Virus record (IMG/VR): IMGVR_UViG_3300028394_002659
Source of the DNA: a virus
Length of the DNA: 64,000 nt
Reading direction: 5' to 3' (one strand)
This document shows, in pieces, positions 30,877 to 54,126 of this stretch. Below the pieces are notes generated by a model that ran no database searches, was not told the DNA's origin, and saw only the letters and a program-made list of their open reading frames with translations. How positions within the stretch are numbered: position 1 is the first letter of the stretch; the number at the start of each line of letters is the position of its first letter. A program made the translations under genes and the position numbers.

Positions 30877-31185
30877 ATGGAAACTGAAAAACTTGTGGCC
30901 CATGCACGGGCTAGATTCGATCACGCCACCGCTAGGCGCACCCTAAAAGAAAAATACGAGGCCCGAATGTTGTTTGCCCATGCAGGCGGAATGTGGCGTG
31001 CCGGACCTGAACTGCAATGTGTGTTGTTGGCCTGTGCCCAGGACAAGGATGTTGTGTTACTGGACCTATACGAAACTCCGGTAAAAGTAAATGTTCCCGA
31101 ATTGTTTGCTCTATCACATGCTCGCTGGCAAGAGCAAATGAATGCCTGGCGGGTAGAACATGAAAATCTCAACCGTAACCGATGA
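30877..31185 (+). CDS. Hypothetical protein (possible fibre-assembly factor), first gene of the tailoring cluster
   Basis: ORF; start moved to ATG 30877 behind the promoter; ATGA-coupled to the next gene. Confidence 0.6.
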   Translation: METEKLVAHARARFDHATARRTLKEKYEARMLFAHAGGMWRAGPELQCVLLACAQDKDVVLLDLYETPVKVNVPELFALSHARWQEQMNAWRVEHENLNRNR

Positions 31186-31988
31186 CCACAGGCGCACTGA
31201 TATTTGCTTTTGACAATGAATCGACCGACTACGTTGCTATGGCTGAGTGGAGTGCTAGAAACATTCGTAGGCACCTCAACATACCTACCGCCGTGGTCAC
31301 TGATACCCGGCCCGAGGATCCGCGACTTCGGGGCTTTGATCAAGTCATCAGCGCCGCACCTGAATCGGGAGGAACACGTTGGTTTGAGGATTATCAGGCA
31401 ACTGTTACGTGGCACAACGCAGGTAGAACTGATGCCTATACTCTTTCTCCTTGGGATCAAACCCTAGTACTGGACGCTGACTATGTGGTGGCCAGTGATC
31501 AGTTAAAGATCTTACTCGATAGCAATCAAGAGTTCTTGGCACATGATCATGCTTATGACATTACTGGAGTTGATAATTTTGTAGGATTAAATCACTACGG
31601 TGAATACAATATGCCCATGTCATGGGCCACAGTAATGATGTTTCGGAAGAGCACTCATGCTCAATTGATATTTGACTGCATGCGAATGATTCGAGCCAAC
31701 TGGCGGCACTATAAAGATCTGTATCGAATCGCCAGTTCTACCTATCGCAATGATCATGCACTAAGCATAGCACTCAATATTGTAAATGGACAAACATTGG
31801 AATATAAAAGTGTGCCTTGGGATCTAGCCAGTGTCACCCCTGAACATACTGTGACTAGAACCAGCAAAGATTGCTACAGAATAGATTATATAGACCAACA
31901 CAAGCGCCCACGTTGGACCACCGTACGCAATCAAGACTTTCATGCCATGGGTAAACAACATTTGGAGAAAATAATTGAAACCTGTTGA
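31182..31988 (+). CDS. GT-A fold nucleotide-sugar transferase-like protein
   Basis: N-terminal GALIFAF..DYV.MA, LSPWDQTLVLDADY (DxD), WATVMMF, RND.ALSIA. Confidence 0.6.
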   Translation: MTTGALIFAFDNESTDYVAMAEWSARNIRRHLNIPTAVVTDTRPEDPRLRGFDQVISAAPESGGTRWFEDYQATVTWHNAGRTDAYTLSPWDQTLVLDADYVVASDQLKILLDSNQEFLAHDHAYDITGVDNFVGLNHYGEYNMPMSWATVMMFRKSTHAQLIFDCMRMIRANWRHYKDLYRIASSTYRNDHALSIALNIVNGQTLEYKSVPWDLASVTPEHTVTRTSKDCYRIDYIDQHKRPRWTTVRNQDFHAMGKQHLEKIIETC

Positions 31989-32760
31989 GGAAAAAGGCTA
32001 CCTAATAGTAGCAACTAATACTCAAGACACAGACTATGTGAATTGCAGTGAAACTCTGGCCAAGACCATCAAGTACTGGCACCCTGATGCAAAAATTTGT
32101 TTGTTGACCAATGAAGACCGTGAGCCTGATCATTTGTTCGATTACGTTCGCAAGTTTCCGTTTCCCATTGATACGGCTAACCCTTATGCCAATGACTGGC
32201 AAGTGTTCAACGCTACACCATTCCGTGAAACAATCAAACTAGAGGCAGACATGTTGATCACCAGCCCTGTTGATCACTGGTGGACCATGTTACGTCATCG
32301 TGATGTAGTGGTATCAACAGGCTGTAGAGACTGGAAAGATCAGCGAGCCAAGTCTAGACACTATCGTCAAGTGTTTGATGCCAACCATTTGCCAGATGTT
32401 TACAATGCAATTACCTACTGGCGCTTGAGTAAAACAGCACAGGAGTTCTTTGTGACTGTACGCAACATATTTGAAAACTGGCCGCAGTATCGTGCCATGT
32501 TAAAATTTCCCGAACAGTCACCGTCGACGGATGTGGTATATGCCATTGCGGCCATGATCCAGGGACCTGAAACATGTACCATGCCTTTTGCCAGTTACCC
32601 CACTATCATACACATGAAACGTCATATTATTGCCGCCAAGCGAGATCCTTGGGTGGACGAATTGATTTGTGAATACCGCGATTATGAACTGCGAGTAAAC
32701 ACTGTCGTGCAACGTGGTGCATTTCATTACAACGTTAAGAATTGGCACCATGAACGCTGA
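31975..32760 (+). CDS. GT-A fold nucleotide-sugar transferase-like protein, paralog of 31182-31988
   Basis: GYLIVA..DYV.C, TPFRETIKLEADM (ExD), PDVYNAITY, STDVVYAIA. Confidence 0.55.
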   Translation: MKPVEEKGYLIVATNTQDTDYVNCSETLAKTIKYWHPDAKICLLTNEDREPDHLFDYVRKFPFPIDTANPYANDWQVFNATPFRETIKLEADMLITSPVDHWWTMLRHRDVVVSTGCRDWKDQRAKSRHYRQVFDANHLPDVYNAITYWRLSKTAQEFFVTVRNIFENWPQYRAMLKFPEQSPSTDVVYAIAAMIQGPETCTMPFASYPTIIHMKRHIIAAKRDPWVDELICEYRDYELRVNTVVQRGAFHYNVKNWHHER

Positions 32761-33082
32761 AGAATTCTGGGCAATCTTGCATGCCATGCCTGAACCACAA
32801 TCAGTGTCATGGCGCTTGTACCACGACGAATCAGGTGAGCCAATAACCTACAGCATGGAAGATTTACCTGGTACATACATTGATGTTGATGCTGAAACTT
32901 ATGCTCGGGCACCCATGAATGTTCGAGTGCAAGCGGGTCAACTGATTGAATTAAAATCTGCTGTGCGCAGACTTACACCTACAGATACAGGAACTGCTTG
33001 CCATCCCGACAACGTGGCCATAGTAGTGCCTGCAACAGAGCCTTACCAAAGATGGAGTATGAAAACACATGAATCCTATTGA
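32750..33082 (+). CDS. Hypothetical protein
   Basis: ORF; likely ATG at 32750 (MNAEEFW...), overlaps both neighbours. Confidence 0.6.
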   Translation: MNAEEFWAILHAMPEPQSVSWRLYHDESGEPITYSMEDLPGTYIDVDAETYARAPMNVRVQAGQLIELKSAVRRLTPTDTGTACHPDNVAIVVPATEPYQRWSMKTHESY

Positions 33083-33995
33083 CATTGCAGACCTAGACTG
33101 CATCTACCTATCATATGACGAACCCGAAAAAGAACAATATTGGATCCGAATTAAAAACATGGTGCCTTGGGCCCGTAGGGTCGATGGTGTACTGGGAAGC
33201 GATGCGGCACACAAAGCCGCGGCCCTGGCAAGTGACACCGAAAGATTTATCCTTGTGGATGGAGACAATATCCCCGATCCGGCGTTTTTTAATCAAACAC
33301 TTGATTTTGCCACATCAGACCATGAGCGGGCTGTGTTCCGGTGGCGGGCTCGTAATCATGTGAACGGACTCATGTATGGCAATGGTGGCCTGAGTTCATG
33401 GACTCGAGAACATGTGATGAACATGCGCACACACGAGAATACAGACGGACGCGATGAAACTGTGGTAGAGTTTTGTTTTGATCCCTTGTACTGGGCCATG
33501 CATGACTGCTACAGCACAACTTATCCCAACCAAAGCCCATTCCATGCCTGGCGTGCCGGCTTTCGTGAAGGTGTAAAGATGTGTTTGAATCAAGGTTCCA
33601 AACCCACTATACAAGACTTCAAACAACGTGTGCATCAACGCAACCTAGATAATTTGACTATTTGGCACAACGTGGGTGCAGATGTGGAAAATGGCATGTG
33701 GTGCATTGCAGGAAGTCGTATGGGCACATATATGACCATGCTGACCAATGTGGATTACATAATGGTACAGGACTTTGAACGACTACGTGAACTGTGGGAC
33801 ACAGTAAAGGATAGTGATCCGCGCTTGCTGGCCAACCGTGTGGCAGAAGAATTAGGGACCACACTAGACCTGCCCTTGGCCATGCTGGAAGCAGAACAAA
33901 GCCAATTCTTCAAGCATCACTATCGATCAAACTTTACAAACCGTGGCATCATGACTAGAGAAATAGACATTATTCGTCAACAAGAGGGCTGGTAA
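33069..33995 (+). CDS. GT-A-like glycosyltransferase-family protein
   Basis: DCIYLSYDEP..RVDGV.GSDAAHKAAA..TERFILVDGDN (DxD); RARNHVNGLMYGNGG; AWRAGFREGVK. Confidence 0.55.
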   Translation: MNPIDIADLDCIYLSYDEPEKEQYWIRIKNMVPWARRVDGVLGSDAAHKAAALASDTERFILVDGDNIPDPAFFNQTLDFATSDHERAVFRWRARNHVNGLMYGNGGLSSWTREHVMNMRTHENTDGRDETVVEFCFDPLYWAMHDCYSTTYPNQSPFHAWRAGFREGVKMCLNQGSKPTIQDFKQRVHQRNLDNLTIWHNVGADVENGMWCIAGSRMGTYMTMLTNVDYIMVQDFERLRELWDTVKDSDPRLLANRVAEELGTTLDLPLAMLEAEQSQFFKHHYRSNFTNRGIMTREIDIIRQQEGW

Positions 33996-35374
33996 TGGAT
34001 AACAAGAGTGTGTTCATGGGCTCAGCAGAGCAAATGAAAGACAAACTGGGTCCTGCACTATGTTTGGCCAAATGGAAACAAGTCAGCCTGCACTTGCCTA
34101 CAGGACTCAACAATTCCTGCTACCATCCACCGCTACATGCCATAGACCCCGAAGCAGTCAAACTCAATCCCAGTGCTCTACACAATACCGAGCACAAAAA
34201 ACAACAGAGACAAATAATGTTGCGCAATGAGCGGCCACAAGAATGCTCCTATTGCTGGAACATGGAAGATCGGGGCAAATTGAGTGATCGACACTATCGT
34301 TCGGGCGAACCCTGGGCCGCCATGGACTTTGAACAAATAAAAAATTCGACAGGAGCCGAAGATGATATTATCCCTAGTTATGTTGAAGTTAATTTTAATC
34401 ACGCTTGCAATCTCAAGTGTAGTTATTGTAGTCCTCAATTTAGTAGCAGTTGGCACGATGAAGCACAGAGAATGGGGCCTTATGCTACCAGTACTCCGCA
34501 CAACAGTCTGGACCATTTTACCGGGAATAGGCGCATTATTCCTGCCCGAGAGCATAACCCTTATGTAGAAGCATTTTGGGCCTGGTGGCCCCAACTATAT
34601 CCCACACTGGAACACTTTAGAATGACCGGTGGTGAACCGCTAATGGACAAGAACACATACAGAGTGTTTGACCATGTGATTGAAAATCCGTCAAAGAAAC
34701 TGCACTTGAACGTTACATCAAACTTCTCAGTAGATGAAGTGTTGTTTCAAAAGTATCTGACCGCTGTCAAAACCATTTGTGATGGCCGCATAGAACATTT
34801 CATGCAGTATGTGAGTTTAGATGGCTGGGGTGCTCAAGCAGAGTACATGCGACACGGTATGACGTTTGATCTAGTGTGGTCACGTGTGGATCAATACTTG
34901 ACTCAAGTGCCCTCCTACAACAGTCTAACGTTTATTATCACAATGAACAATCTGTCAGTGAGCAGTCTGCAACAACTGCTGGAGGGCATACTGGAACTAC
35001 GTCGGAAACATAGCACAACATATCAGCGTGTGTGGTTTGATACACCTGTGCTTAGACAGCCTGCCTGGCAAAGCCTACAGACCTTGCCTGAATCATATGC
35101 ACAGCGACTAGAAAGTGTTCGAGACTGGATGAGTCAAAATTTAATCACAGACACCAATCCCTATCACGGATTCAAAGACTATGAAGTGGCACGCCTGGAT
35201 AGAGACATTGCCTGGATGCGTAGTGCGCAGGCACAAGATCATTCTGTGGCTCGTGCAGATTTTTATCGTTTCTTTGCGGAACATGATTGCCGCCGAGGCA
35301 CAGACTTCTTGGCAACATTTCCTGAAATGCGTGCCTGGTGGGCCGAATGTGAGTATCATGCCAAAAACACATAA
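33995..35374 (+). CDS. Radical SAM protein with N-terminal Twitch/SPASM-like domain (#1)
   Basis: CNLKCSYC, TGGEP; N-terminal CLAKW..SCYHPP..ECSYC. Confidence 0.9.
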   Translation: MDNKSVFMGSAEQMKDKLGPALCLAKWKQVSLHLPTGLNNSCYHPPLHAIDPEAVKLNPSALHNTEHKKQQRQIMLRNERPQECSYCWNMEDRGKLSDRHYRSGEPWAAMDFEQIKNSTGAEDDIIPSYVEVNFNHACNLKCSYCSPQFSSSWHDEAQRMGPYATSTPHNSLDHFTGNRRIIPAREHNPYVEAFWAWWPQLYPTLEHFRMTGGEPLMDKNTYRVFDHVIENPSKKLHLNVTSNFSVDEVLFQKYLTAVKTICDGRIEHFMQYVSLDGWGAQAEYMRHGMTFDLVWSRVDQYLTQVPSYNSLTFIITMNNLSVSSLQQLLEGILELRRKHSTTYQRVWFDTPVLRQPAWQSLQTLPESYAQRLESVRDWMSQNLITDTNPYHGFKDYEVARLDRDIAWMRSAQAQDHSVARADFYRFFAEHDCRRGTDFLATFPEMRAWWAECEYHAKNT

Positions 35375-36476
35375 ACTCATATGCGATACTTTCTGTGAAA
35401 TATATCCACAGATAGCACAGTTTTGTGACAATACATTTTGGGATTTTGATCAGCATGAGCCGCAAGCAGGCTCTGTCACAGTGATAAGTCGTCAAGCATT
35501 CAATCAGCACCATGTGAAGATTAAAGAATTGGCCAGTACTGGTTTCTTTTATCCTGTGTTGGCCAACCCTACAGAAGGATCTAGTACATTGAAACATCAA
35601 TGTGAACGCCTGGGTCTAATAGATTTATTAAAACAGAACAAAATGGCCCTGGTAGGCTGTGGTGACATGGAATCTGACCTACCGCACTTGTTCTACGACA
35701 GTTATTTGTGCAAACCATATGAGTACAAAGAAAATCGTGATCAATGTGCCAGAGTAGATGAAATATATGCCAAACTACATAAACCCTACAAGTTCTTGTT
35801 TTTAAATGGCCGCACACGCCCGCACAGAAAATACATGATTGAAAGTCTGCGTACATTGTTAGATCAGGCATTGTGGACCAATCTAGACATTGCACCAGTG
35901 TACCATCACACATACCAAACTGATCTGTTGTCCAGACCTTCAAAAATACAGTTGTTGCCCGCAAAATATGAAGTTGACCAATTTCGTGTGGGCTTGGATA
36001 TGGCACACCAAAACTCCTTTGTCAAGGCAGAATTATTTAATGACCATTGGGGAGAAATCTACATACAGGCTGAACCTTATGTTGATACCTATTTTAGTTT
36101 GGTAACAGAAACAGTATGCGATTATCCATACAGTTTGCGCAGTGAAAAGATATACAAACCCATTGCCATGGGCCATCCCTGGATAGCAGTGGCCAATTGT
36201 GGTTTTTATCGGGACTTAAAAAAACAAGGATTCCAAACCTACAGTCATCTAATAGACGAATCATTTGATCTAATGGACAACAATCAAGACAGACTAGATA
36301 GAATTGTAGCGGTGGTACAAGATCTATGTCAACAAGACCTGGCAAAATTCCTGGTTGCGGCGGAACAAATAAGTAAGTATAATCAACAGCATATGGCCGA
36401 CCTTGGCCCTAAAATTCGCGCTGAATTCCCCCAGCAGTTCCTGGACTTTGTGGACCGCACATTCAACCTCAAATGA
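35358..36476 (+). CDS. GT-B/GT10-like glycosyltransferase-family protein (#1)
   Basis: FLFLNGRTRPHR, YFSLVTET..SEKIYKPIAMGHPW, GFQTY..IDESFD; start at ATG 35358. Confidence 0.55.
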   Translation: MPKTHKLICDTFCEIYPQIAQFCDNTFWDFDQHEPQAGSVTVISRQAFNQHHVKIKELASTGFFYPVLANPTEGSSTLKHQCERLGLIDLLKQNKMALVGCGDMESDLPHLFYDSYLCKPYEYKENRDQCARVDEIYAKLHKPYKFLFLNGRTRPHRKYMIESLRTLLDQALWTNLDIAPVYHHTYQTDLLSRPSKIQLLPAKYEVDQFRVGLDMAHQNSFVKAELFNDHWGEIYIQAEPYVDTYFSLVTETVCDYPYSLRSEKIYKPIAMGHPWIAVANCGFYRDLKKQGFQTYSHLIDESFDLMDNNQDRLDRIVAVVQDLCQQDLAKFLVAAEQISKYNQQHMADLGPKIRAEFPQQFLDFVDRTFNLK

Positions 36477-37570
36477 TCACAAGTATAATTAATTCCTTTC
36501 CTGAACAATGGGTTTATGGCAGTTACGAACAGTCAATACTTCGCGGTATTCAGCAACAGATTGATCAGACTTTCCCCACGCAACGCAATCTGCTGTTCAA
36601 TACCACCTGGCGCTTGCCGCCCAGCGAGGATGCGGAACTGCAACAAATACTCACAGCAGGAGAACAGTTTGACAACTTGTTTGTGGTGTCCACTGTGGAT
36701 TACTTTTCACAGCATCACGAACCAGTGGTACTGGAACTAATCCAACGCCTGGCGATCAAACACACATACTTCCTGGGCAACTTTGACACCCCCAGCCCCA
36801 TCTGGGCGCCTGCAGACAGCACAACCATTTACTTTAACTTTTTTGCTATTGTGTGCAGAGATCATTTTGAAATATATCAAACACAAGAATTAGTATTGAC
36901 TGATCCCAAGTACTTGTTTATCAGTTACAATCGCAAACCTTACCCACATAGATTGGCATTTGTAAAAAAGTTAATCGAACACAATCTAAAGGATCTTGGA
37001 GTAGTGACCCTGGGAAGATCTTTCGACGGGGATACAGGGCCGGACAAGGATCTTTATTTCTCCATTGGAGAGAAAAATCAGGACTATGTAAAATACGGAC
37101 ACTGGTACCCTGAAAGCTCAGCCGCTACCCCACACGACATCCCACACGACCTTTTTAGTTTGCACAATATGCATTATTGGCAACATCATTTCTTGCACAT
37201 AGTAGGTGGCACCAGTAACAATCCTCGAAATCAATTTATAAATCAAATTGATTTTAAACCCATTATTGGCCTGCGACCTTTCTTGATCAACGGACAAACA
37301 CAACATTACGAATTCTGGGAACACAATGGATTTCGTATGTTTGATCATTATTTTCCGGGACTGAAACTTCGTCCTGATCCCACAATAGATCCCAATGACA
37401 CACTACACACTGCATTGATTGCGGCAATAAAACAACTGAGTACAGCCAGCCCAACTGAACTACTAGATATGTACAACCGCATGCTACCGGACTTGTTGCA
37501 TAATAGACAACGTTGGTATGAATGGGCTGATGAACAAAACCACATAGTTAGTAACTTATTCAATGAATGA
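36473..37570 (+). CDS. GT-B/GT10-like protein (#2, divergent motif)
   Basis: FISYNRKPYPHR, DFKPIIGLRPFLING, GFRMFD, LLHNR; lacks ET/SEK. Confidence 0.5.
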   Translation: MITSIINSFPEQWVYGSYEQSILRGIQQQIDQTFPTQRNLLFNTTWRLPPSEDAELQQILTAGEQFDNLFVVSTVDYFSQHHEPVVLELIQRLAIKHTYFLGNFDTPSPIWAPADSTTIYFNFFAIVCRDHFEIYQTQELVLTDPKYLFISYNRKPYPHRLAFVKKLIEHNLKDLGVVTLGRSFDGDTGPDKDLYFSIGEKNQDYVKYGHWYPESSAATPHDIPHDLFSLHNMHYWQHHFLHIVGGTSNNPRNQFINQIDFKPIIGLRPFLINGQTQHYEFWEHNGFRMFDHYFPGLKLRPDPTIDPNDTLHTALIAAIKQLSTASPTELLDMYNRMLPDLLHNRQRWYEWADEQNHIVSNLFNE

Positions 37571-38894
37571 TCTAGAATTTAAACACACAGTATTAGACCC
37601 TCTCTCAGCCAGTTTCTGTGCGGCGAAATGGTACAACGCAACCATTTGGTTAGGATCAGGGCAGACTACCAGTTGCCATCACCCGCCAGCCCATTTGGTG
37701 GACCCGGATCGAGTACGTTCCAACCCTAGGCTACTGCACAACACTGATCAAAAGAAAGAGGATCGTCGTAAAATGCTTGCGGGCGAACGTCCTGCAGGTT
37801 GTGAGTATTGTTGGAAGATCGAAGACATGGGATTGGACGCTGTGTCAGACCGTGTGTACAAAAGTAAGATATACCCCATAGAGGCCTTGAATGAAGCATT
37901 TAATACTGCACCCGATACCGACGTCAATCTCCGCACACTGGAAATTGCTTTTGATCGTACTTGTCAGTTTGCTTGCTCCTATTGTAATCCTGCTTTTAGC
38001 ACAACTTGGGTCAAGGACATACGTACAAATGGACCCTACAATGATCTTGTCAGTGACGGTCGCAACCACTTTACTCATACTCACGATAATGCACAACTGT
38101 TTAGGATCACAGAGGCTAATCCTTATATTGACGCATTTTTTGCTTGGTGGGAAACAGATCTACATCATACCCTTCAGGAACTTAGAATTACCGGAGGAGA
38201 GCCCCTTATGTCTGCCCATACCTGGCGACTCATTGATTGGTTTCGAGATAATCAGGGCAAGAGTAGCACACGCTTGGCTATCAATAGTAATCTGGGCACC
38301 GAAGTTGACATTGATCGATTACTTGCCAGTACACATGGCATGGCCATCGACTTATACACAAGCAATGAGGCAATCTCCACTCAAGCAGAGTATATACGTG
38401 ACGGCCTGATCTGGGACGACTGGGCCAACAATGTAGAACGCTTGTTAGATTCGGGGCAGTTCCGGGGCATACACGTTATGTGTACCATTAATGCACTGTG
38501 CCTGAGCACACTGGATCAGTTGTTAGAGTGCATAATGAATTGGAAAATGGAATACGGAAAGGATGCTATAAGTTTCACACTAAATATCTTACGCTTTCCG
38601 TCATTTCAATCACCATTGATTCTACCCGACGCCCAGCGCCAAGTATATAGACAACGCTTGGTCACATGGCTGGCGCATTGGTCTGACAGTGACGTCATAC
38701 ACGAACACGAAGTCAATCACACACAACGATTAATAGATTACTTGGATGTGGTCAAGACCCCGCATTCAGAAGCATTTGATCGCCCCAAACTATTAAATGA
38801 TTTTCGACAGTTTTATTCACAGTATGATCAACGTAGATCAAAAGACTTTGACACAGCATTTCCCGAATTAAAAGAATGGTACAACGCATTATGA
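37563..38894 (+). CDS. N-terminal-Twitch radical SAM protein (#2)
   Basis: CQFACSYC, TGGEP; FCAAKW..SCHHPP..GCEYC. Confidence 0.9.
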   Translation: MNDLEFKHTVLDPLSASFCAAKWYNATIWLGSGQTTSCHHPPAHLVDPDRVRSNPRLLHNTDQKKEDRRKMLAGERPAGCEYCWKIEDMGLDAVSDRVYKSKIYPIEALNEAFNTAPDTDVNLRTLEIAFDRTCQFACSYCNPAFSTTWVKDIRTNGPYNDLVSDGRNHFTHTHDNAQLFRITEANPYIDAFFAWWETDLHHTLQELRITGGEPLMSAHTWRLIDWFRDNQGKSSTRLAINSNLGTEVDIDRLLASTHGMAIDLYTSNEAISTQAEYIRDGLIWDDWANNVERLLDSGQFRGIHVMCTINALCLSTLDQLLECIMNWKMEYGKDAISFTLNILRFPSFQSPLILPDAQRQVYRQRLVTWLAHWSDSDVIHEHEVNHTQRLIDYLDVVKTPHSEAFDRPKLLNDFRQFYSQYDQRRSKDFDTAFPELKEWYNAL

Positions 38895-44178: not shown

Positions 44179-45205
44179 TACAATTGAGATAGACCTACGC
44201 GGCACAAAGAACATACTAACTGTGTACATAGACATTGCAGACAACAGTCTCAGCCGCAAATGGCTGACGGCATTAAATGATATTGTTCAAAATAGTCTGC
44301 ATTTAGAAAAGAACTACTGCTGGCTTGGCTGGACTGAAAGCGCCAGAACAGCAGAGTATCTGTGTACACAGATCAATAGATCAATCAACGCTATCAATGC
44401 CAGCACGTTGGATTATCGCATACAAGATTTCTTTAGCCCGGGCACAGTAATACAAGCAGATCTAGACGTCAATCATGCGCAAATGAATCAACTGCACAGA
44501 TACTTTGAAGATCTGCAGGGCACCGCAGGGGCAATGAGTCCGCATTACACAGCCGCAGATGATCACACACGCTGGCACATACGTCAATTGAACCTGTTGT
44601 GTCACGAACTGGAAAGTTTGGTGCTGAGCATGCGCAAGGCAGTACAGGCGCCTGAATGGCGCAGGCCCAGTCAACTCATGTGCTGGTTGAATGCCCCGCG
44701 ATTTGAATTAGAGGAACAGGATCTTGAATTGTTTGGTATAGACACAATCAATAGAAAACTGGGTGGTGTGTATGTGGGCGTAAATAAAGCAGTAGGCAAG
44801 CATCACTGGGAGGTGTTTCAAGATGAAGGTAGGGATTCGCGTATTGGTGAACTGGTTACTACAAGTCTTCGAACACAGACTCAAGCCGCTGGAGACTTTG
44901 ATATTGAATGGGCACGTGATCCCGGCGCATACCCGTGGCAAATTGCGCAATTGGCCGAATTTCGAAGGTGGCTTGAACGGAATGGATTCGACCCAACTGA
45001 CCCCGGTCTCACAATCGGCCACCCTTGTATCGGGCAAGTTGATCTTGAAAGATCATTTGGTACACAAGACCATCAAGCGATCTGGGCACAACTAGCCCAA
45101 CACCTGGATGTGTGTGCTGTGCGTACTGGTCAAGCACAGGTCACATATGATTATCACTGGAGCGATCCGGACTATATAGAGCAACAAATTAGGAGTTTAA
45201 AATGA
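44171..45205 (+). CDS. Hypothetical protein within the tailoring cluster
   Basis: 344-aa ORF coupled on both sides; His-containing motifs MNQLHRYFE, LNLLCHELE, VGKHHWE. Confidence 0.7.
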   Translation: MLDTIEIDLRGTKNILTVYIDIADNSLSRKWLTALNDIVQNSLHLEKNYCWLGWTESARTAEYLCTQINRSINAINASTLDYRIQDFFSPGTVIQADLDVNHAQMNQLHRYFEDLQGTAGAMSPHYTAADDHTRWHIRQLNLLCHELESLVLSMRKAVQAPEWRRPSQLMCWLNAPRFELEEQDLELFGIDTINRKLGGVYVGVNKAVGKHHWEVFQDEGRDSRIGELVTTSLRTQTQAAGDFDIEWARDPGAYPWQIAQLAEFRRWLERNGFDPTDPGLTIGHPCIGQVDLERSFGTQDHQAIWAQLAQHLDVCAVRTGQAQVTYDYHWSDPDYIEQQIRSLK

Positions 45206-45303
45206 ACTGGATTCGAAGACTTTGGGATAGAATTACATTAGAAATACGCTATCGTAAAAAATTAAAAGAACTGCGCAAACGAGATCCATTTATCTACAAA
45301 TGA
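45202..45303 (+). CDS. 33-aa basic peptide MNWIRRLWDRITLEIRYRKKLKELRKRDPFIYK (carbamoyltransferase-associated; not in ORF track)
   Basis: AGGAG RBS at 45191; ATGA overlaps at both ends. Confidence 0.75.
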   Translation: MNWIRRLWDRITLEIRYRKKLKELRKRDPFIYK

Positions 45304-46787: not shown

Positions 46788-47821
46788 AGATAAGTTTCTA
46801 ATCCGCCCCGGCGACGGATATCTTGTGTACAGCATGAGATACCACCGTCCCAGAAGTAACTGTGACGCAGTTCACTAATGATAGGCTCTATCCGGTGCCG
46901 ACGGCAGTAGTCAAACACTTCCCGATTGTAAGCACTAAAAATCACATGTGATTCATCTAGTACCAAGCAGTTGACATCAAACACAGTTTCGGCAACAAAG
47001 CCAGTCCACTTGTTTAGATAAGTGTCCACAAACTGTGTGAACTCTTGCGTGGGTGTTTGTCCTTGCACATACCAAGCACCTGGTGATTGTTCGTATTTGA
47101 ACTTGCCAACTTCCATTGCGGCCCAGATACTTGAATCCCAGATCTTGCATACGTCCCAGCCAGGAAAGTCTCGGGCCAAGTCCAAGTTAACATCGTGCTT
47201 GGAACTCAGCAACACTCCGGGCTTGAGAATAGCAAACACAGCATCTCCATGGCCATCTGTAATGGCTTCATGGATGCGATATTCAGGACCTAACACATTG
47301 TCCACAATCCAACGGGTCTGCTCAGGCTTTAAGAAGTCTGAGTTATCAAAAAACACATCACGACCCACACGCACAATACAACTAGCACTTGCACCATTAA
47401 GAACGCAGTTCTCGTCCCAGCCTGTAGGTCCATGCGGATTGATCACTGTGCCGCCCGCAGACTCGTACTCGCCGCACAGCCCGTCTAGTTCAGACATGGC
47501 CAACACACGCAACAGTCGGTCGCCTAGTGTGATTTGCCAGTCTCTTGGTGTGAGTGGTGGAAGAGGTGCACCGCTACCGTGAACCTGTGATTGAATAAAG
47601 CGATCACGGTCGGGCAAGTCGGGACGACGTACTCGAGCACCAAACTTTTCTATTGTGCGTTGCAAGTTAGCAAGGTCTTCTTCAGTTTCCAAAAGGATTT
47701 GTTGTAACTGATTGCGCACTTGTGCGTTCTCGATGAAGTCAAAATAGTCTGGGCTGTACGCACGGCCGACTATGACTTCTTCAAGGGGTTGCCAACTTGT
47801 ATAACTGTTAATAGGATTCAT
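46784..47821 (-). CDS. Amidinotransferase (glycine/inosamine-phosphate amidinotransferase family)
   Basis: NSYTSWQPLEEVIVGR, PRD, GHGD, FDVNCLVL, FWDGGISCCTQDIRR (catalytic Cys, His and Asp positions present). Confidence 0.85.
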   Translation of the reverse strand: MNPINSYTSWQPLEEVIVGRAYSPDYFDFIENAQVRNQLQQILLETEEDLANLQRTIEKFGARVRRPDLPDRDRFIQSQVHGSGAPLPPLTPRDWQITLGDRLLRVLAMSELDGLCGEYESAGGTVINPHGPTGWDENCVLNGASASCIVRVGRDVFFDNSDFLKPEQTRWIVDNVLGPEYRIHEAITDGHGDAVFAILKPGVLLSSKHDVNLDLARDFPGWDVCKIWDSSIWAAMEVGKFKYEQSPGAWYVQGQTPTQEFTQFVDTYLNKWTGFVAETVFDVNCLVLDESHVIFSAYNREVFDYCRRHRIEPIISELRHSYFWDGGISCCTQDIRRRGGLETYL

Positions 47822-48989
47822 TTATGTGCTCGAGTAGGATATTTAAGCGGGCTGTCTTGAGTTCAAGAAATAAACGTTGGTTGTGTTCTATGTCTGCCCT
47901 GGCACGAGCATGTAATCTAGGCAAATCAGATTGTGCCCGGACTATTGCATTGCGCAGTTTGGTCCAACGATGTGTATTATTATGATCGTAATCATAACTG
48001 TTATCCAGGATGCCGTCAAATGTTCTATAACCCAGATTGCGTAGGGTTTGTAGACTGCCTGCTGGTCCTACTACAAAAAACATCTGTCCGTGTTTGATAG
48101 GTTTGAATGTTTTTTCTGATAAAAGTACTCCACTAGACTGATCAGCATCAAAATGTGTTTCCAGTGCAATATGACAATAACTATTTGAGAAGTACTTGCC
48201 CACAAGGTTGGCATGATTGTTACGTTCTGTTTGATTTAACTCATCGCTGTAGTACGGTGCTGACTTTAAAAATTGCTCTGTTCTGGCTCTTAAATCATCA
48301 AACGAATCAATCTCAATAGGGTTTTCTTCATCCACAACCTCACCCGATTCGCAATAACTCCAATAACTGTTGTCCAACACATGATGCTGTAGTAAATCGG
48401 CCATTGCAGTGGCACGCCATGTTTTGTGTAATCTGTTCAAGGCAGTGAACTCACGCTCACGTGGTTGATCGTGTATGACCATTGGTGCTGTGGCATGATT
48501 TCGATGCCAATACCATAGTTCAGAATCAGCAAAGTACACAAAGCCTTTGACATCACGTGCGGCTGTGTTACCGCTGACAAATTTATAACAACAAGGGGGC
48601 AGTTGATGATTGGCCACTAATTCATCTAGTCGTTGTTTGATCTTTACAGGATTGTCACCTTCGTGATAATAAAACAATACACGTATGTTACCGTGCCCAA
48701 GTTCAGAGACCACACGGCCGGGTAATAGTTCAAAATAGTCTATGTCAAAATCAAAAAAACCCAGGCCAACCGGATAGAATGTATTTTTAGGCCAGGCCTC
48801 GTTCAACTCAAATATGTTCAATTCAACGCCATGATGTTCGCAATATTCCTGTAGTCTAAGTGGCACAGTAAACGGCCAGTGCTGTTCAAACTCACGCCAT
48901 GATTGTGTGTAAGGCTCTGCTTGATGTCTTGCAAAAGCAGGATATATTTTACCCCGGACTGTCTGGTCCGATATCAGATTCAATTTCAT
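47808..48989 (-). CDS. GT-B/GT10-like protein (#4)
   Basis: FTALNRLHKTWR, YCHIALET..LSEKTFKPIKHGQMF, LRNLGYRTFDGILDNSYD, IEHNQ. Confidence 0.55.
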   Translation of the reverse strand: MKLNLISDQTVRGKIYPAFARHQAEPYTQSWREFEQHWPFTVPLRLQEYCEHHGVELNIFELNEAWPKNTFYPVGLGFFDFDIDYFELLPGRVVSELGHGNIRVLFYYHEGDNPVKIKQRLDELVANHQLPPCCYKFVSGNTAARDVKGFVYFADSELWYWHRNHATAPMVIHDQPREREFTALNRLHKTWRATAMADLLQHHVLDNSYWSYCESGEVVDEENPIEIDSFDDLRARTEQFLKSAPYYSDELNQTERNNHANLVGKYFSNSYCHIALETHFDADQSSGVLLSEKTFKPIKHGQMFFVVGPAGSLQTLRNLGYRTFDGILDNSYDYDHNNTHRWTKLRNAIVRAQSDLPRLHARARADIEHNQRLFLELKTARLNILLEHINESY

Positions 48990-50133
48990 TCAACATCTCC
49001 TGTAGTTCTGCCCACAGCACGGCTTCGAAGCCACCATTATAAAAATGATTCCAATTGTGTTCTACAACTTCTCGTGCCTGATCAAACAGGTCTTGCTTGC
49101 CTTCTGGGGGCAGTTCGTCTAGACTACGCAACAAACTAGCAACACGCTCGATACGCACTGAATCTTCTGCCAAGTCATAACTTTCATCCCATATACCCTC
49201 AAATGTACGGAATCCATAACTACGCAAGTACTCAAGACTGCCACGAGTACCTACAATGACAAACGGCATGCCCAGGGCTATGGGTTTGAATGTCTTTTCT
49301 GTCAGGTGATGTCTGCGCCCTGTTGCTATAGTTTCTGTCACAAGATACAGTAAACTTTCTGCCGACTCACCGAACAGGCTCAACCAACATGAATGCATGG
49401 GATGATCTGTTTCGCCTGCAAAGTTAATGGGCAGTGTTTGTTGTGCAAACACTTGTTCAATATCTGGATACTTGTTCACCAATGGTTTGACTGCATCGTG
49501 TATACTGATATTTTCTGCTGGGCAAGTTTCTGGACAACTGATATGATTGTTTAATAATTTATTTTTGAATAGGTGATACAGCACTTCTAGCCTGTGTTGA
49601 CGCTCACCTGCCACAATACGATTGGGTGCAATAAATGTTCGAGTAATAGTGCGTTCTGCTGGCGGTGAAATCAAGAATGTTCGATCATATCCACGATACC
49701 AATCTAGTGCGGCCCAGCCATGAAAGAAATAATATAGTGATTTCCATTGGTACTTGTTGCAAATAGCCTCAACGTTTTCACTATCACGCTCACTGGTCAC
49801 AATGTAACCAGGTGCAACAAATCCCGGAGGTCTTGGTATTTTTCCTGCCATTTTGTACTTGCCGTTGTTTCTCTCCCAGTAGCAGTTGGTATGTATGTCT
49901 TCATTAAGCGTGACAACTTGTTCAAAAGTAGGCTGATGTATGTTCAAATGAATAGGCTCTTGGTCAAAAAAGAATATATAATTGTGTTCGTGACAATCGT
50001 CTCTTCCATAGTTCATCACGCTGTCCGGGTCGCTTCTCCCGAATGGTTCACAAAAAAATTCTCTAAAGCCTGGTCTATTCTTTCTAATCCAGGGCCAGAA
50101 TGTATTGTTATAAATTTCATCTATTCTAATCAT
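48949..50133 (-). CDS. GT-B/GT10-like protein (#5)
   Basis: FIAPNR..RQHR, LYLVTET..LTEKTFKPIALGMPF, LRSYGFRTFEGIWDESYD, VEHNW. Confidence 0.55.
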   Translation of the reverse strand: MIRIDEIYNNTFWPWIRKNRPGFREFFCEPFGRSDPDSVMNYGRDDCHEHNYIFFFDQEPIHLNIHQPTFEQVVTLNEDIHTNCYWERNNGKYKMAGKIPRPPGFVAPGYIVTSERDSENVEAICNKYQWKSLYYFFHGWAALDWYRGYDRTFLISPPAERTITRTFIAPNRIVAGERQHRLEVLYHLFKNKLLNNHISCPETCPAENISIHDAVKPLVNKYPDIEQVFAQQTLPINFAGETDHPMHSCWLSLFGESAESLLYLVTETIATGRRHHLTEKTFKPIALGMPFVIVGTRGSLEYLRSYGFRTFEGIWDESYDLAEDSVRIERVASLLRSLDELPPEGKQDLFDQAREVVEHNWNHFYNGGFEAVLWAELQEMLNEIESDIGPDSPG

Positions 50134-52138
50134 GTTTGACGTATTCTATTCGGGTATTAAACCCAATCAATTTGCACACGAGCGTGAGGCTGATTCGATT
50201 GAGCATGCACAGACCATGAGCCGCACAAGATATTTTTGGTGGATCTCATACTTATGTGACTATTCCAAGTGGGATTGGCTTTGGGAGCCTGTTCCTTGGC
50301 AATCCACACAACGTCATGCATGGCCCAGTCAATGGCAAAAGGATTCTGGTACATATTTGATTCCTAAAGCAGTATTCACTGACACAAACTATCATGACGC
50401 ACCAGTTATTATACGTGTCTGTAGAGATACTGTCAACTGGACTGTGCCAGAAGGCATTGAGGCATTTGATACCACGTGGCACCCAGATCCAACTGAACCA
50501 CCAATGACTTATCAATTTGGCACACAACATCAACGCACAGGTGGGCCAAGATACCGCAATGGTGGCACCCTGGTCAAGTATGTTGACGCACCCAGGGCTG
50601 TAAAAATATCACAAGACAATTGCTGGATCATTCCCGAAGGCGCAGATACTGATAGTTTTGATTGGACTTGGCACCCAGATGATACAGATCCTCCTTATGT
50701 CTATCAATTTGGCACACAACATCAACGCACTGGCGGTCCACAGTATTGTGTGTCCGGTGCCCTGGATACAAAATTCATTGGACAAATGGTCATACAAACC
50801 AACCGAGTGGCCACAGCCATATATGAAATTGATCATATGGACGGTAATACGGGCAACATTGCCAACACCACTCGACGTGTGCGTTACTTTGACAACTACC
50901 GCGATACACTCATACGCATAGCAAAAAGCATAGGCCCTGAGCATGAGTTTGTGTGGATATGTTCCTCAATCTGTGACTACAGCGACTTTGACTTTTCGTG
51001 GCACCCTGAACAATGGCAAGCAGGTATGTTACATGTGTTTGCCAGTGATGGCGAAAAGTTTGGGGACACATTCTTCATGCATGTGCCCACATTTGCATAT
51101 CGTGCAGAACGTGTGGCTTTGTTGGAATGGTACGACTGTAACTTTGTTGAGACCAGTGTTCCACGTAGACCTATGCCGGTGATCAATCATGCCCTTGACA
51201 GTCAGGCTGAAGCAGTTCGAGCACTGCCATTCGACGGTCCGCTGGCCCTGTATACCACAACAGATTATGTGCCGGGCAACTTGGTCACAGTTCCGTTATG
51301 GCGCCAGGAAACCAAAACTATTGTGCCGTTGAGTGAGGGCGCAACCAGTGTGATTGTGCCCAAGGCCGCAGTAGGAGACATACGCACACAGTTGTACGAT
51401 TACGCTTACATAGACCGAACACATCGCATGTTAAAAGATCAACCCTTGGACATTGTGTTTATTTCAAATGGCGAACCCAATGCTAGATCTAATTTTTTGC
51501 AGATGACAATGTATTTGGCCAACGAGTCAAGATACACAAACAAAGTTCACTTAGTAGACGGTGTAAACGGACGAGTGGCAGCATACCATGCGGCTGCTAG
51601 AGCCAGCACCACACCTTGGTTCTTTGCTGTGTTTGCCAAATTAGAAGTGGATCAACTGTTTGATTGGTCCTGGCAACCAGATCGTATGCAACAGGCCAAG
51701 CATTATATCTTCCATGCACGTAATCCTGTCAATGGATTACAGTACGGGCATCAGGCCATGATTGCCTACAACAAAAAATTAGCATTGGAGAATACTGGTG
51801 TTGGGCTAGATTTTACGCTGGATCAAGCACATGAAGTTGTGCCTATTGTATCCGGAACAGCAAACTATTATATCAACGATTGGATGTGTTGGCGTACTGC
51901 ATTTCGCGAAGTGATCAAACTCAAGGCAAGTTTACCAGATGTAGAAAATGAGTATAGACTTTGTCAATGGCTCGCTGTAGATAACACACAGTCTAAGTGG
52001 AGCATGAAAGGTGCCCAGGATGCAGTGGAGTTTTATGACTCTGTAAATGGCGATCCCGCTGAACTCCAGAAGAGTTATGAGTGGGCATGGCTTGCAAGTT
52101 ATGCGTTTGTCAAACGATCTCTAACAACTGATCAATAA
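50132..52138 (+). CDS. Multi-module GT-A-like protein (repeated FD(W/F)SWHP units), C-terminus paralogous to 33069-33995
   Basis: LDIVFISNGEP..VDGVNGRVAAYHAAA..ARNPVNGLQYG..WRTAFREVIK matches the 33069 protein. Confidence 0.6.
   Translation: MFDVFYSGIKPNQFAHEREADSIEHAQTMSRTRYFWWISYLCDYSKWDWLWEPVPWQSTQRHAWPSQWQKDSGTYLIPKAVFTDTNYHDAPVIIRVCRDTVNWTVPEGIEAFDTTWHPDPTEPPMTYQFGTQHQRTGGPRYRNGGTLVKYVDAPRAVKISQDNCWIIPEGADTDSFDWTWHPDDTDPPYVYQFGTQHQRTGGPQYCVSGALDTKFIGQMVIQTNRVATAIYEIDHMDGNTGNIANTTRRVRYFDNYRDTLIRIAKSIGPEHEFVWICSSICDYSDFDFSWHPEQWQAGMLHVFASDGEKFGDTFFMHVPTFAYRAERVALLEWYDCNFVETSVPRRPMPVINHALDSQAEAVRALPFDGPLALYTTTDYVPGNLVTVPLWRQETKTIVPLSEGATSVIVPKAAVGDIRTQLYDYAYIDRTHRMLKDQPLDIVFISNGEPNARSNFLQMTMYLANESRYTNKVHLVDGVNGRVAAYHAAARASTTPWFFAVFAKLEVDQLFDWSWQPDRMQQAKHYIFHARNPVNGLQYGHQAMIAYNKKLALENTGVGLDFTLDQAHEVVPIVSGTANYYINDWMCWRTAFREVIKLKASLPDVENEYRLCQWLAVDNTQSKWSMKGAQDAVEFYDSVNGDPAELQKSYEWAWLASYAFVKRSLTTDQ
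50510..50730 (+). repeat. Direct repeat, 29-bp exact core at 192-bp period (YQFGTQHQRTGGP x2)
   Basis: tatcaatttggcacacaacatcaacgcac at 50510 and 50702. Confidence 0.9.
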
Positions 52139-53270
52139 CGTATTCAACTTCAAGGTCTGTGAGTTCAGGATAGATAGGCAAACTTAGGCAACGTCTGCTT
52201 AGTGCAGATGCTGGACTTAGTAACCCGCCGGGGTTGTCCAGGTGCTGATAAGCAGGCAATTCATGCAGGGGTTCAGCATAGTGAACTTTGGTTTCAATTT
52301 TGCATATGGCAAGGTTACGTTGCACAATATCTCTGGCATCCACTTCAATCACAAACTTGTGATAGCAATGAGTTGAGAAGTTGCTGTCGTCAATTAGCGA
52401 ACGTACATTGCGCTTCTTTAGTTGTTCAATCCAGTGTGCCGCAATCTCACCACGTCGTTTTTGCCAAGCATCTATGTGCCGAGTCTTGACCATCATTTGC
52501 GCACAATCAATTTCGCTCATCCTTGAGTTTGTACCAGTTTCGGCATGACGAGTATGCTTGCCATTGTTCACCCAGTCTCTTGCATAGTCCAAGAGATTTC
52601 TATCATCGGACACCACAGCACCACCGTTGCCATAATTGGCCAAGTTCTTTGTGGGATCGAAACTGATAGCGGTGGCCTCGCCTTGTCTGTTACAGTTGTC
52701 ACTCAACCAATGCTGTGCGCCATCTTCCAGCAGGATGGCCCGATTACGTGCTGGTTGCATGTCACGTAATGCCGCACCATACAATCCCACAGCACACACA
52801 GCATGATAATGCGAATCCATATCCTTGAGTGTCTTTCGTATGTCTAACTGACCATAGTAGTCAGTCTCACCAATCATCACCTGCCATCCTGCTCGTATGA
52901 AAGCATTAGCAGTGGCCGGATAAGTCAATGCAGGAACAAGCACAGTAGGAGGTTTTACATAACTCAATTCGGTTTGAGCATAGTAATTGGCCAAGATCTC
53001 AAGTGCCTGCGTGCCTGAGTGACAAGTCACAGCATAACTCACGTGATTTTTTTTAGCCAGCCAGTTTTCAAACTCAGCAGTATAGTTGCCACCCATGAGA
53101 ATACCTGAACGCAACACTTCATCTGTTGTGTCCAGTATTTCTGTGCGGAGATTGTTATACTGCTTTTTTAGACCAGTAAACGGAATTGTCAATCCAGTTG
53201 TAGTAATTTTCAAATCCTTGTTCAACATCCACTTGGGGATCATACCCAAGTATGGTCCTGGCACGATCAA
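52110..53270 (-). CDS. DegT/DnrJ/EryC1/StrS PLP-dependent sugar aminotransferase
   Basis: HSGTQAL, EDGAQ, SFDPTKNLANYGNGGA, GTNSRMSEI, LSLPIYPEL; true start probably a downstream TTG/ATG (53192-53228). Confidence 0.93.
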   Translation of the reverse strand: MIVPGPYLGMIPKWMLNKDLKITTTGLTIPFTGLKKQYNNLRTEILDTTDEVLRSGILMGGNYTAEFENWLAKKNHVSYAVTCHSGTQALEILANYYAQTELSYVKPPTVLVPALTYPATANAFIRAGWQVMIGETDYYGQLDIRKTLKDMDSHYHAVCAVGLYGAALRDMQPARNRAILLEDGAQHWLSDNCNRQGEATAISFDPTKNLANYGNGGAVVSDDRNLLDYARDWVNNGKHTRHAETGTNSRMSEIDCAQMMVKTRHIDAWQKRRGEIAAHWIEQLKKRNVRSLIDDSNFSTHCYHKFVIEVDARDIVQRNLAICKIETKVHYAEPLHELPAYQHLDNPGGLLSPASALSRRCLSLPIYPELTDLEVEYVIDQLLEIV

Positions 53271-54126
53271 TATTTAATGCGCCGCGTGACGGGAAGTCTG
53301 CATCCTTGTCGCGTATCTCAATGGTGCCCTTGCCCACAATCTTAACAATCATCTCTGCGGCTTCTAACAAACTGACTGAGTGTGATTTGGTAATGTTATA
53401 GGTCTTGTTGGCAGCCATAATGCGTGTCGCGGCAGCCACAATACCATCCGCGGCATCATCCACATAGGTAAAGTCTAGTGTCTCGGATACCCCATTAACA
53501 TGGAGAACGCTGCCTCGCATGGCGGCGAGCATAAACTTTGCAACCACTCGGTCTTCCACGTCCAAGGGTCCGTATACAGCACTAGGCCTGATAATAGCGT
53601 AGTCAAAGCAACCACGACGATGATAATCTTTAACAAGGTCTTCTCCAGATAATTTCATAATTCCATATTGTCCAATAGGACGGCATTCAGCATCCTCTAG
53701 CACTTGATCTTCAAAGTCTCCGTAGACCATACTGCTGGATATGTACACCACACGCTCCACACCATGCTTTTTGGCACTCTCGCAAACGTTGATCAAACCT
53801 TCCGTCATGACTCTGGCACCCCATGCAGGGTTGGCATTCACAACTTTCTGTCGAGGAAAGCTGGCCATGTGTATGATCACATCAGGCTTGTGTTCTTCTA
53901 CCACACGATCAAATGCCTCGGCGTCTGAGATATCAGTGCGATATATGTCCTGTGTTGCAATCTTCTTGCGCCGTTCGTCCAACAAGTACTCTAGTTCGTC
54001 TTGCGGAATGATACCATAGTTAGTCATGATGTCCACAATCACAACTTCATGTTCTTTTGCTTCTAGTCGTTGTACCACGTTGTGCCCAATCAGACCCATG
54101 CCCCCGGTTACTAAAAATTTACTCAT
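53155..54126 (-). CDS. NAD-dependent NDP-sugar epimerase/dehydratase (extended SDR)
   Basis: VTGGMGLIG, ISSSMVYG, YGIMK (YxxxK), RPSAVYGP, DFTYVDD. Confidence 0.93.
   Translation of the reverse strand: MSKFLVTGGMGLIGHNVVQRLEAKEHEVVIVDIMTNYGIIPQDELEYLLDERRKKIATQDIYRTDISDAEAFDRVVEEHKPDVIIHMASFPRQKVVNANPAWGARVMTEGLINVCESAKKHGVERVVYISSSMVYGDFEDQVLEDAECRPIGQYGIMKLSGEDLVKDYHRRGCFDYAIIRPSAVYGPLDVEDRVVAKFMLAAMRGSVLHVNGVSETLDFTYVDDAADGIVAAATRIMAANKTYNITKSHSVSLLEAAEMIVKIVGKGTIEIRDKDADFPSRGALNIDRARTILGYDPQVDVEQGFENYYNWIDNSVYWSKKAV

Follow-up and report, generated by a model that had tools for sequence, protein, structure and literature searches.

The 64,000-nucleotide stretch analysed here (the window, taken from the viral record IMGVR_UViG_3300028394_002659) carries at positions 30877-54126 a compact block of 21 genes and an unannotated 33-codon gene, and this cluster most likely encodes a conserved, self-contained cytoplasmic pathway for glycan tailoring and assembly. 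Reading it as nucleotide-sugar tailoring and glycan assembly is reasonable because its enzymes, which include five radical S-adenosylmethionine (SAM) proteins, a carbamoyltransferase, an amidinotransferase, an aminotransferase, a short-chain dehydrogenase/reductase (SDR) and a family of glycosyltransferases (GTs), are co-conserved as one syntenic module. The product that we favour, at a probability of roughly 0.4, is an oligosaccharide of amino-, guanidino- and carbamoyl-sugars carried on the phage's own Thr/Ser-rich fibres. Within a single 148.9-kb IMG/VR contig, whose completeness is 43% (CheckV), the window corresponds to positions 63006-127005 on the minus strand; cluster-bearing relatives reach 320-349 kb at 93-99% completeness, and the genome that hosts the cluster is therefore taken to be that of a freshwater jumbo phage of about 340 kb. 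Seven freshwater metagenome runs contain DNA near-identical to the window.

A sequence-only reading of this DNA had called five radical SAM enzymes, and all five match NCBIfam family NF033640 (N_Twi_rSAM) over their full length at 273-409 bits, above the curated cut-off of 170 bits:

33995-35374, +: g06, N-twitch radical SAM enzyme (NF033640, 320 bits) in which CxxxCxxC, the four N-terminal cysteines and GGEP are kept
37563-38894, +: g09, N-twitch radical SAM enzyme (NF033640, 292 bits) with an ortholog in Ralstonia phage RsoM2USA (53% identity)
38876-40573, +: g10, N-twitch radical SAM enzyme (NF033640, 409 bits) with an extra N-terminal region of 165 aa
40649-41863, +: g11, N-twitch radical SAM enzyme (NF033640, 331 bits)
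42889-44178, +: g13, N-twitch radical SAM enzyme (NF033640, 273 bits)

Across 26 radical SAM paralogues and orthologs, the cysteines of CxxxCxxC (C123, C127, C130), the motif G190-G191-E192-P193 and four further cysteines (C9, C27, C74, C77), candidate ligands of an auxiliary cluster, are invariant, and the Pfam SPASM match lies N-terminal to the radical SAM domain. None of 14 model genomes contained a true NF033640 member. Each of the five paralogues forms one conserved ortholog group of its own, which suggests that they have distinct, fixed roles.

The carbamoyl-, amidino- and aminotransferase and the SDR that had been proposed alongside them were all confirmed at the level of the family:

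45300-46787, +: g15, O-carbamoyltransferase of the NodU/CmcH/TobZ type (PF16861, 1e-47; PF02543, 1e-33; phrog_1601, 2e-88)
46784-47821, -: g16, amidinotransferase (matches to AGAT, StrB1, HsvA and SxtG, E 4e-15 to 6e-10)
52110-53270, -: g20, pyridoxal phosphate (PLP) sugar aminotransferase, DegT/DnrJ/EryC1 (PF01041, 7e-56, 190.4 bits for a cut-off of 19.8)
53155-54126, -: g21, extended SDR, a nucleoside diphosphate (NDP)-sugar epimerase, dehydratase or reductase (phrog_540, 2e-61)

The g15 protein scores 117.6 bits with Carbam_trans_N (cut-off 24) and 162.4 bits with Carbam_trans_C (cut-off 27), and its 142.5 bits with the NodU equivalog NF041651 lie below the cut-off of 1000; by these scores it is a member of the superfamily and not NodU proper. 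In g16, H191 and D193 (His-x-Asp) and C330/C331 are invariant in 73 orthologs and the C-terminal GG-x-x-C-x-T-x-D-x-RRRG aligns with AGAT; a Pfam search matched no family, the amidinotransferase model included. K208 of g20, the PLP lysine, is invariant among orthologs, and g20 reaches no NCBIfam equivalog cut-off (the best is PseC, 131 versus 423). Invariant positions of g21 are G8/G9/G11/G14 (GxxGxxG), S130-132, Y154 and K158. Its NCBIfam matches to dTDP-glucose 4,6-dehydratase (8e-36) and GalE (9e-31) are both below the equivalog cut-offs, RmlB TIGR01181 giving 123.7 bits where 365 are required.

Nine GT-like proteins had also been claimed, and here the outcome is split. Five of them are paralogues with a common C-terminal region by BLASTP and no Pfam match, which we call family X:

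35361-36476, +: g07, family-X GT-B member (BLASTP to g12, g17 and g18, 1e-8 to 1e-15)
36473-37570, +: g08, divergent family-X member, accessory (BLASTP to g18, 3e-4; present in 3/80 relatives)
41856-42896, +: g12, family-X GT-B member, accessory (by paralogy)
47808-48989, -: g17, family-X GT-B member (by paralogy)
48949-50133, -: g18, family-X member whose model has the GT-B glycosyltransferase fold (predicted local distance difference test score, pLDDT, 83.9)

All significant Foldseek matches of the g18 model are glycosyltransferases, and family X is accordingly assigned, through this one model, to the GT-B fold, with two Rossmann-like domains superposable on solved GT-B enzymes; a profile search of PDB sequences with the family returned no match. 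It has zero homologs in 50,697 GenBank phage records and five loci in 185,579 prokaryote genomes, at least two of these being phage contigs binned into one metagenome-assembled genome (MAG). A sixth paralogue lies about 50 kb past the end of the window (G000:C1:11119-11724), and a g21-like SDR is also found outside it (G000:C1:27582-28370). The other four GT-like proteins are of a different kind:

31182-31988, +: g02, putative GT-A-like protein with an LDAD motif, a paralogue of g03 (hhalign 98.9%) with no Pfam or PDB match
31975-32760, +: g03, paralogue of g02 with a LEAD motif (phrog_1903, function not assigned, 1e-10)
33069-33995, +: g05, DGDN-motif family, putative GT-A-like protein that pairs with N_Twi_rSAM genes in Bdellovibrionota
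50132-52138, +: g19, protein of 668 aa whose residues 431-660 are a g05-family domain (hhalign 100%, E 6e-56) without DxD/DGDN

Their sole GT-like feature is the DxD-like motif, with DGDN kept in g05 and lost in g19. Profile searches of PDB sequences gave noise only for g02 and g03 and nothing for g05. The g02 profile matched 2894 metagenomic protein clusters and, among the 120 listed, all are unnamed close orthologs without Pfam domains. In the ESM Atlas, g05 gave a weak lead (0.85 to a cluster with PF00535 in 32% of its members) and g19, whose N-terminal part carries repeated WxWxPD...Y.F motifs, matched unnamed viral clusters only. For g02, g03 and g05, hhalign against E. coli WaaJ/WaaO lent no support to membership in GT8, with only the DxD stretch of g02/g03 aligned, at a probability of 4%. 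The GT claim thus has support for family X, through the g18 model, and stays putative for g02, g03, g05 and g19, which have no demonstrable nucleotide-sugar fold. The broader proposal of a complex, decorated glycan fares in the same way: the enzyme set is real and co-conserved and the reading reasonable, minus the four proteins whose fold is not supported.

The arrangement of these genes is kept in relatives. The 5' neighbours of the cluster are baseplate and virion genes, namely a gp5-like hub, gp25-like and gp6-like wedge proteins, a giant virion protein and the small genes s1, s2 and s3:

12862-27051, +: virion structural protein of 4729 aa (phrog_10938, 992 bits), flanked by the gp6-like wedge gene on one side and the small fibre-like genes on the other

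Synteny was counted in 80 related IMG/VR loci per query, with g05 for the 5' half and g18 for the 3' half (315 and 176 IMG/VR stretches matched, respectively). The order giant protein-s1-(s2)-s3-g01-g02-g03-g04-g05-g06-g07-g09-g10-g11-(g12)-g13-g14 occurs in 80/80 loci found with g05, and the order g09-g10-g11-(g12)-g13-g14-g15-[variable insert]-g16-g17-g18-g19-g20-g21-g22-ThyX-g24-g25 in about 70/80 loci found with g18. Random scattering in relatives, set beforehand as the refuting outcome, was therefore not seen. Identity from g09 to g21 across the latter loci is 50-90%, with a median of 87% for the amidinotransferase; g08 and g12 are accessory, and some genomes carry inserted extra copies of radical SAM, GT, SDR, DegT and amidinotransferase genes.

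A megablast of the whole cluster against the 50,697 GenBank phage records gave no match, and homologs of family X, g05 and g14 were found in none of them, except g05 in RsoM2USA. In this distant, cultured 344-kb Ralstonia jumbo phage, the block g02-g03-x-g05-g06(rSAM)-g05-like is kept; it follows, at a distance of a few genes, ORF356, ORF359 and ORF361, which are reported to be virion proteins (PMC8504454), and g09-x-x-g15 is found elsewhere in the genome. Vibrio phage K566 has only radical SAMs in common with the cluster. Bdellovibrionota chromosomes contain N-twitch radical SAM genes in multiple copies, repeatedly adjoining one or two g05-family genes, and the radical SAM/g05 pairing is therefore older than the phage cluster. 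One such Bdellovibrionia locus holds MoxR, DUF58, SppA, an M15 peptidase and further radical SAMs, with no obvious polysaccharide context.

At its start, the cluster is separated from the virion genes by a conserved junction. About 20 tightly coupled genes had been described just after the terminator of the structural operon, and the open reading frame (ORF) map, which agrees with the earlier gene coordinates, bears this out: most junctions overlap by 1-19 nt, and g10 and g11 alone are separated by a real gap, of 75 nt. Genes g01-g15 lie on the + strand, g16-g18 on the - strand, g19 on the + strand and g20-g21 on the - strand. The junction and the two small genes of the 5' half are as follows:

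30836-30857, +: intrinsic terminator hairpin closing the baseplate/fibre operon (9-bp stem, T-run)
30842-30870, +: sigma70-like promoter TAGACT-17-TATAAT, overlapping the terminator, its -10 box ending 6 nt before the ATG of g01 (30877)
30877-31185, +: g01, small protein with no Pfam match, in 80/80 related loci
32714-33082, +: g04, small protein with no Pfam match, in 80/80 related loci

Given the 6 nt between the -10 box and the ATG, the g01 transcript is probably leaderless. The same design recurs in 60 distinct relatives (hairpin, a -35-like TAGACT or TTTACT, TATAAT or TACAAT, ATG), with a stem that varies in sequence while the hairpin itself is kept; in 42 of these 60 the last 20 nt before the ATG include an exact TATAAT, the rest having variants such as TACAAT. 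The motif (T/C)ATAAATA, which resembles the T4 late promoter, has three copies in the window (at 8949, 9359 and 27818, +), every one of them 12-27 nt 5' of a baseplate or virion gene, and zero copies inside the cluster. From its own sigma70-like promoter and the lack of a late-type motif, we infer that the cluster is a separate transcription unit with an early-looking promoter, and not simply part of the late structural operon.

At the divergent g18 (-)/g19 (+) pair, the start codons overlap back-to-back by 2 nt at CATG (50132/50133) with zero intergenic DNA, and each promoter must therefore lie within the other gene; the same overlap is seen in many relatives.

How might such enzymes act together? 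The SDR g21, or a twitch radical SAM acting as a BtrN-type dehydrogenase, would yield a keto-sugar nucleotide that g20 could aminate; g16 would then convert the amine to a guanidino group, and g15, with a 33-aa partner ending in DPFIYK (see below), would O-carbamoylate a hydroxyl. The remaining N-twitch radical SAMs could carry out further C-H chemistry, for example epimerisation, dehydration or oxidation. The five GT-B paralogues, possibly with g02/g03 and g05/g19, would join the sugars into an oligosaccharide, perhaps assembled on the phage's own Thr/Ser-rich fibre and baseplate proteins, which are encoded directly upstream. We infer every substrate, the order of the steps and the acceptor, and take the chemistry from what is known of each family.

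We favour a virion acceptor for four reasons: (i), even RsoM2USA retains the link to fibre genes; (ii), the neighbouring virion proteins are Thr/Ser-rich, Ser+Thr+Asn making up 32.5% of s2 and 36.3% of s3 versus 15.8% of the cluster enzymes; (iii), genes that modify the host surface usually differ between phages, and a core as strictly conserved as this one is unusual among them; and (iv), a distant homolog of the amidinotransferase occurs in the virions of cyanophage S-SCSM2R. In that phage, an amidinotransferase was detected in purified virions (PMC12801897), and it shares 37% identity with g16 over 43% of g16. A more specific version, in which the freshwater jumbo lineage and, in reduced form, RsoM2USA decorate their own fibres with a guanidino-/carbamoyl-sugar oligosaccharide tailored by the five N-twitch radical SAMs, seems to us rather unlikely as a whole.

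Several observations weigh against a pathway that glycosylates the virion. The cluster has its own sigma70-like promoter and lacks (T/C)ATAAATA, and co-expression with the late virion genes is thus not indicated. ThyX and other genes on the far side are as syntenic as the fibre genes, which makes adjacency to the latter weak evidence. On the enzymatic side, g02, g03, g05 and g19 have no match in Pfam, NCBIfam or PDB sequences, and g21 reads SSSMVYG, without a TDE motif, where RmlB-type 4,6-dehydratases presumably carry TDEVYG, which makes g21 a doubtful source of the keto-sugar. Finally, the sole clear chromosomal relative of family X, in Bdellovibrionia, sits in a context that resembles a lipopolysaccharide (LPS) core locus, beside genes for a GT9 heptosyltransferase, a GT2 and a UDP-glucose dehydrogenase.

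This last observation, together with the early-looking sigma70 promoter, may point to the host envelope: at the cytoplasmic face, the enzymes could modify the LPS or lipooligosaccharide (LOS) core or another lipid-linked glycan, exported by a host flippase, and so alter the cell surface during infection, to block superinfection or keep progeny from sticking to debris. The cluster proteins are all soluble, like LPS-core glycosyltransferases: no 19-residue window with a Kyte-Doolittle mean above 1.6 was found in any real ORF, hence no membrane segment in the cluster proteins, and no Pfam match to a flippase, polymerase or initiating transferase (Wzx/Wzy, ATP-binding cassette or Gtr-type) in the cluster. 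Export and polymerase genes are thus absent, as had been noted in the sequence-only reading, which took their absence to favour virion glycosylation. That argument proved weak, given the chromosomal context of family X and given that LPS-core glycosyltransferases are also soluble cytoplasmic enzymes, relying on the host's own flippase; for the same reason, solubility is compatible with a cytoplasmic pathway and does not separate virion from host-surface targets. Similar cassettes of GTs and radical SAMs beside fibre genes have likewise been read as envelope-directed in pelagimyophages (PMC7029224). However, the core is fixed and strongly conserved, down to the 87% median of the amidinotransferase, family X is nearly absent from bacterial genomes, and the cluster genes include no lipid-carrier enzyme, ligase or flippase. 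We therefore regard remodelling of the host envelope as a serious but doubtful explanation.

The promoter, again of an early type, could also suit hypermodification of DNA or RNA, in which a modified base would be the acceptor of the GT-B proteins, its sugar or side chain being tailored by the remaining enzymes; ThyX adjoins the cluster, and the sixth family-X paralogue lies beyond it. Yet no ThyA-type dCMP/dUMP hydroxymethylase (PF00303) was found in five related records, four of them 93-99% complete, or in the phage's own contig, and a search for TET/JBP (PF12851), run without a positive control, found none in the five records. The earlier remark that neither a cytosine hydroxymethylase nor a TET gene is visible therefore extends to near-complete relatives, and glycosylation of pyrimidines in DNA is unlikely for this reason. 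The matches of g18 to T4 structures do not stand out, protein and lipid glycosyltransferases scoring within 1 Z unit of them, and nine GT-like proteins would be many for base modification. DNA bases, once listed among the candidate acceptors, are weakened accordingly, and we hold nucleic acid hypermodification to be very improbable.

Two further genes of the cluster bear on what g15 and the radical SAMs may act upon:

44171-45205, +: g14, highly conserved protein modelled as a cyclophilin-like barrel with a helical insert
45202-45303, +: basic micro-protein of 33 aa ending in DPFIYK, with ATGA overlaps with g14 and g15

The g14 model is confident and has no convincing structural relative; a profile search of PDB sequences found nothing, and the best ESM Atlas match (0.89) is to an unrelated endonuclease family and uninformative. 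The 33-aa peptide, which has no Pfam match, shows a mean identity of 88%, versus 74% for g15, and its C-terminus is invariant; in some phage relatives, ORFs with a GDS motif stand at its position. At bacterial loci with g15 homologs, an ORF ending in DPFIY (reading frames of at least 33 aa, whose start codons are not defined in all cases) lies directly upstream of the carbamoyltransferase in 12/35, including Reyranella, Edaphobacter, Sorangium, Geodermatophilus, a Bacteroidota MAG and a Bdellovibrionales MAG. As such ORFs directly precede carbamoyltransferases in several phyla, the peptide is most likely an accessory of g15, and may well serve this carbamoyltransferase subfamily in general, as an accessory not described before.

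A conserved 33-aa peptide with an invariant C-terminus inside an operon of radical SAMs could alternatively indicate peptide or protein side-chain chemistry, the radical SAMs, g14 and the enzymes around the peptide modifying a peptide or fibre residues (cross-links, epimerisation, Lys-to-homoarginine). SPASM/twitch enzymes are often peptide maturases, and the cluster radical SAMs show only weak, partial NCBIfam matches to peptide-maturase families. Yet bacterial loci pair the peptide with carbamoyltransferases, and no radical SAM was noted there, the Edaphobacter locus, with an SGNH-like gene beside the DPFIY/carbamoyltransferase pair and no radical SAM, being the only one annotated in full. 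Moreover, the cluster has no RRE/PqqD domain, protease or exporter, and the DegT enzyme, the SDR and the GT-B fold all indicate sugar chemistry. The idea that the 33-aa ORF is the precursor of a ribosomally synthesized and post-translationally modified peptide, or a scaffold for the radical SAMs, was downgraded on account of the 12/35 bacterial pairings and the Edaphobacter locus, and peptide chemistry as a whole appears improbable to us.

Outside these subjects, a PP-loop ATPase gene lies past the cluster:

56412-57281, -: g26, PP-loop ATPase with an SGGIDS motif (weak matches only, to Asn synthase, QueC and MnmA models)

It occupies the same position in 1/80 relatives. The whole cluster is also present, at 70-100% protein identity, on two contigs (148 and 183 kb) of a 'Haliscomenobacter sp.' MAG; both are evidently of phage origin and were binned with the bacterium, which gives a weak hint of the host at best. 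A Polynucleobacter MAG has short contigs (5-8 kb) with g15 homologs at 62% and 48% identity.

If the more specific version above is true, in which the five N-twitch radical SAMs tailor the sugars of a fibre-borne oligosaccharide, this would be the first virus-encoded glycan tailoring pathway that depends on radical SAMs. It would also be the first virion glycosylation system among the T4-like or jumbo phages that infect Gram-negative bacteria, and would give the NF033640 family and its g05-type partner their first function. A single, strictly conserved enzymatic pathway takes up about 7% of a genome of some 340 kb in this lineage, which is abundant in lakes, and several uncharacterised families meet in the cluster (the N-twitch radical SAMs, a GT-B family specific to phages, the g05 family, the g14 fold and the DPFIY micro-protein). 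Its product and acceptor would tell whether large Gram-negative phages glycosylate their virions or rewrite host surfaces and would provide these families with initial functions, and RsoM2USA offers a cultured system in which the function of the cluster can be tested.

Comparison with known systems starts with the enzyme classes themselves, which had been recognised as the toolkit of aminoglycoside biosynthesis. The same four classes are indeed used for aminoglycosides and saxitoxin (BtrN twitch radical SAM, BtrS/DegT, StrB1/SxtG, TobZ/SxtI), and g16 matches StrB1 and SxtG directly; sxtJ and sxtK, which we take to be small accessory genes by the carbamoyltransferase, would resemble the DPFIYK peptide. 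In contrast to these pathways, the cluster contains no 2-deoxy-scyllo-inosose synthase, inositol-phosphate synthase, polyketide starter, exporter or resistance gene, and its radical SAMs carry the twitch domain N-terminally and not C-terminally as in the aminoglycoside enzymes. The classes are present, then, and with no cyclitol-forming enzyme among the cluster proteins that match a Pfam or NCBIfam family, this is not an aminoglycoside pathway as such. A free small molecule, for instance an aminoglycoside-like or guanidino/carbamoyl pseudo-oligosaccharide serving as inhibitor or signal in the infected cell, would fit the toolkits, and the authors of the S-SCSM2R study name homologs 'antibiotic synthesis genes' (PMC12801897). 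But no cyclitol synthase, exporter or resistance gene is recognisable with Pfam or NCBIfam, and with five to nine transferases, a long chain attached to a macromolecule seems more in keeping; we consider such a molecule an improbable product.

Closer to an oligosaccharide on the virion are viruses that glycosylate their own particles. Mycobacteriophage capsids and tail tubes reportedly carry O-glycans (Freeman et al. 2023, cited in PMC12619734), and the glycan clusters for the Mimivirus fibril and the chlorovirus capsid use viral cytoplasmic GTs and sugar-nucleotide enzymes, with no export machinery, to decorate their own structural proteins. These systems have in common with the cluster an SDR or 4,6-dehydratase, a DegT-type aminotransferase and GTs, the acceptor being presumed in our case; radical SAMs, amidinotransferases and carbamoyltransferases are, to our knowledge, absent from all of them. 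The T4 alpha- and beta-glucosyltransferases (PDB 1y6f, 1c3j) share 6-9% sequence identity, in a structural match tied with many other GT-B enzymes, and unlike T4, this lineage has no hydroxymethylase partner that we could find.

Among phages, a close likeness is with the host-recognition cluster (HRC) of pelagimyophages and cyanomyophages, where GTs, sugar-nucleotide enzymes and radical-SAM cassettes lie beside a VrlC-like giant protein and fibre genes (Zaragoza-Solas et al. 2020, PMC7029224). Those are T4-like aquatic myophages too, in which radical-SAM cassettes come and go between relatives. The HRC is described as hypervariable and non-syntenic (PMC7029224), whereas the related contigs examined here share a fixed, syntenic core of about 19 genes; relative to the HRC, the cluster adds the five paralogous N-twitch radical SAMs, the amidinotransferase, a lineage-specific GT-B family and the DPFIYK peptide. 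S-SCSM2R, a cultured T4-like phage, has a DegT-family aminotransferase, a radical SAM, amidinotransferases, many GTs and NDP-sugar epimerases; unlike those of this cluster, its genes lie scattered across more than 40 kb, interspersed with photosynthesis and other auxiliary genes. Its homology to the cluster is low or partial, the virion amidinotransferase being a distant homolog of g16. The 'Moraphage' jumbo-phage paper mentions GTs in general remarks only (PMC12619734). What sets the present cluster apart is its fixed syntenic core, with five paralogous N-twitch radical SAMs, a private GT-B family, and g14 with the DPFIYK peptide.

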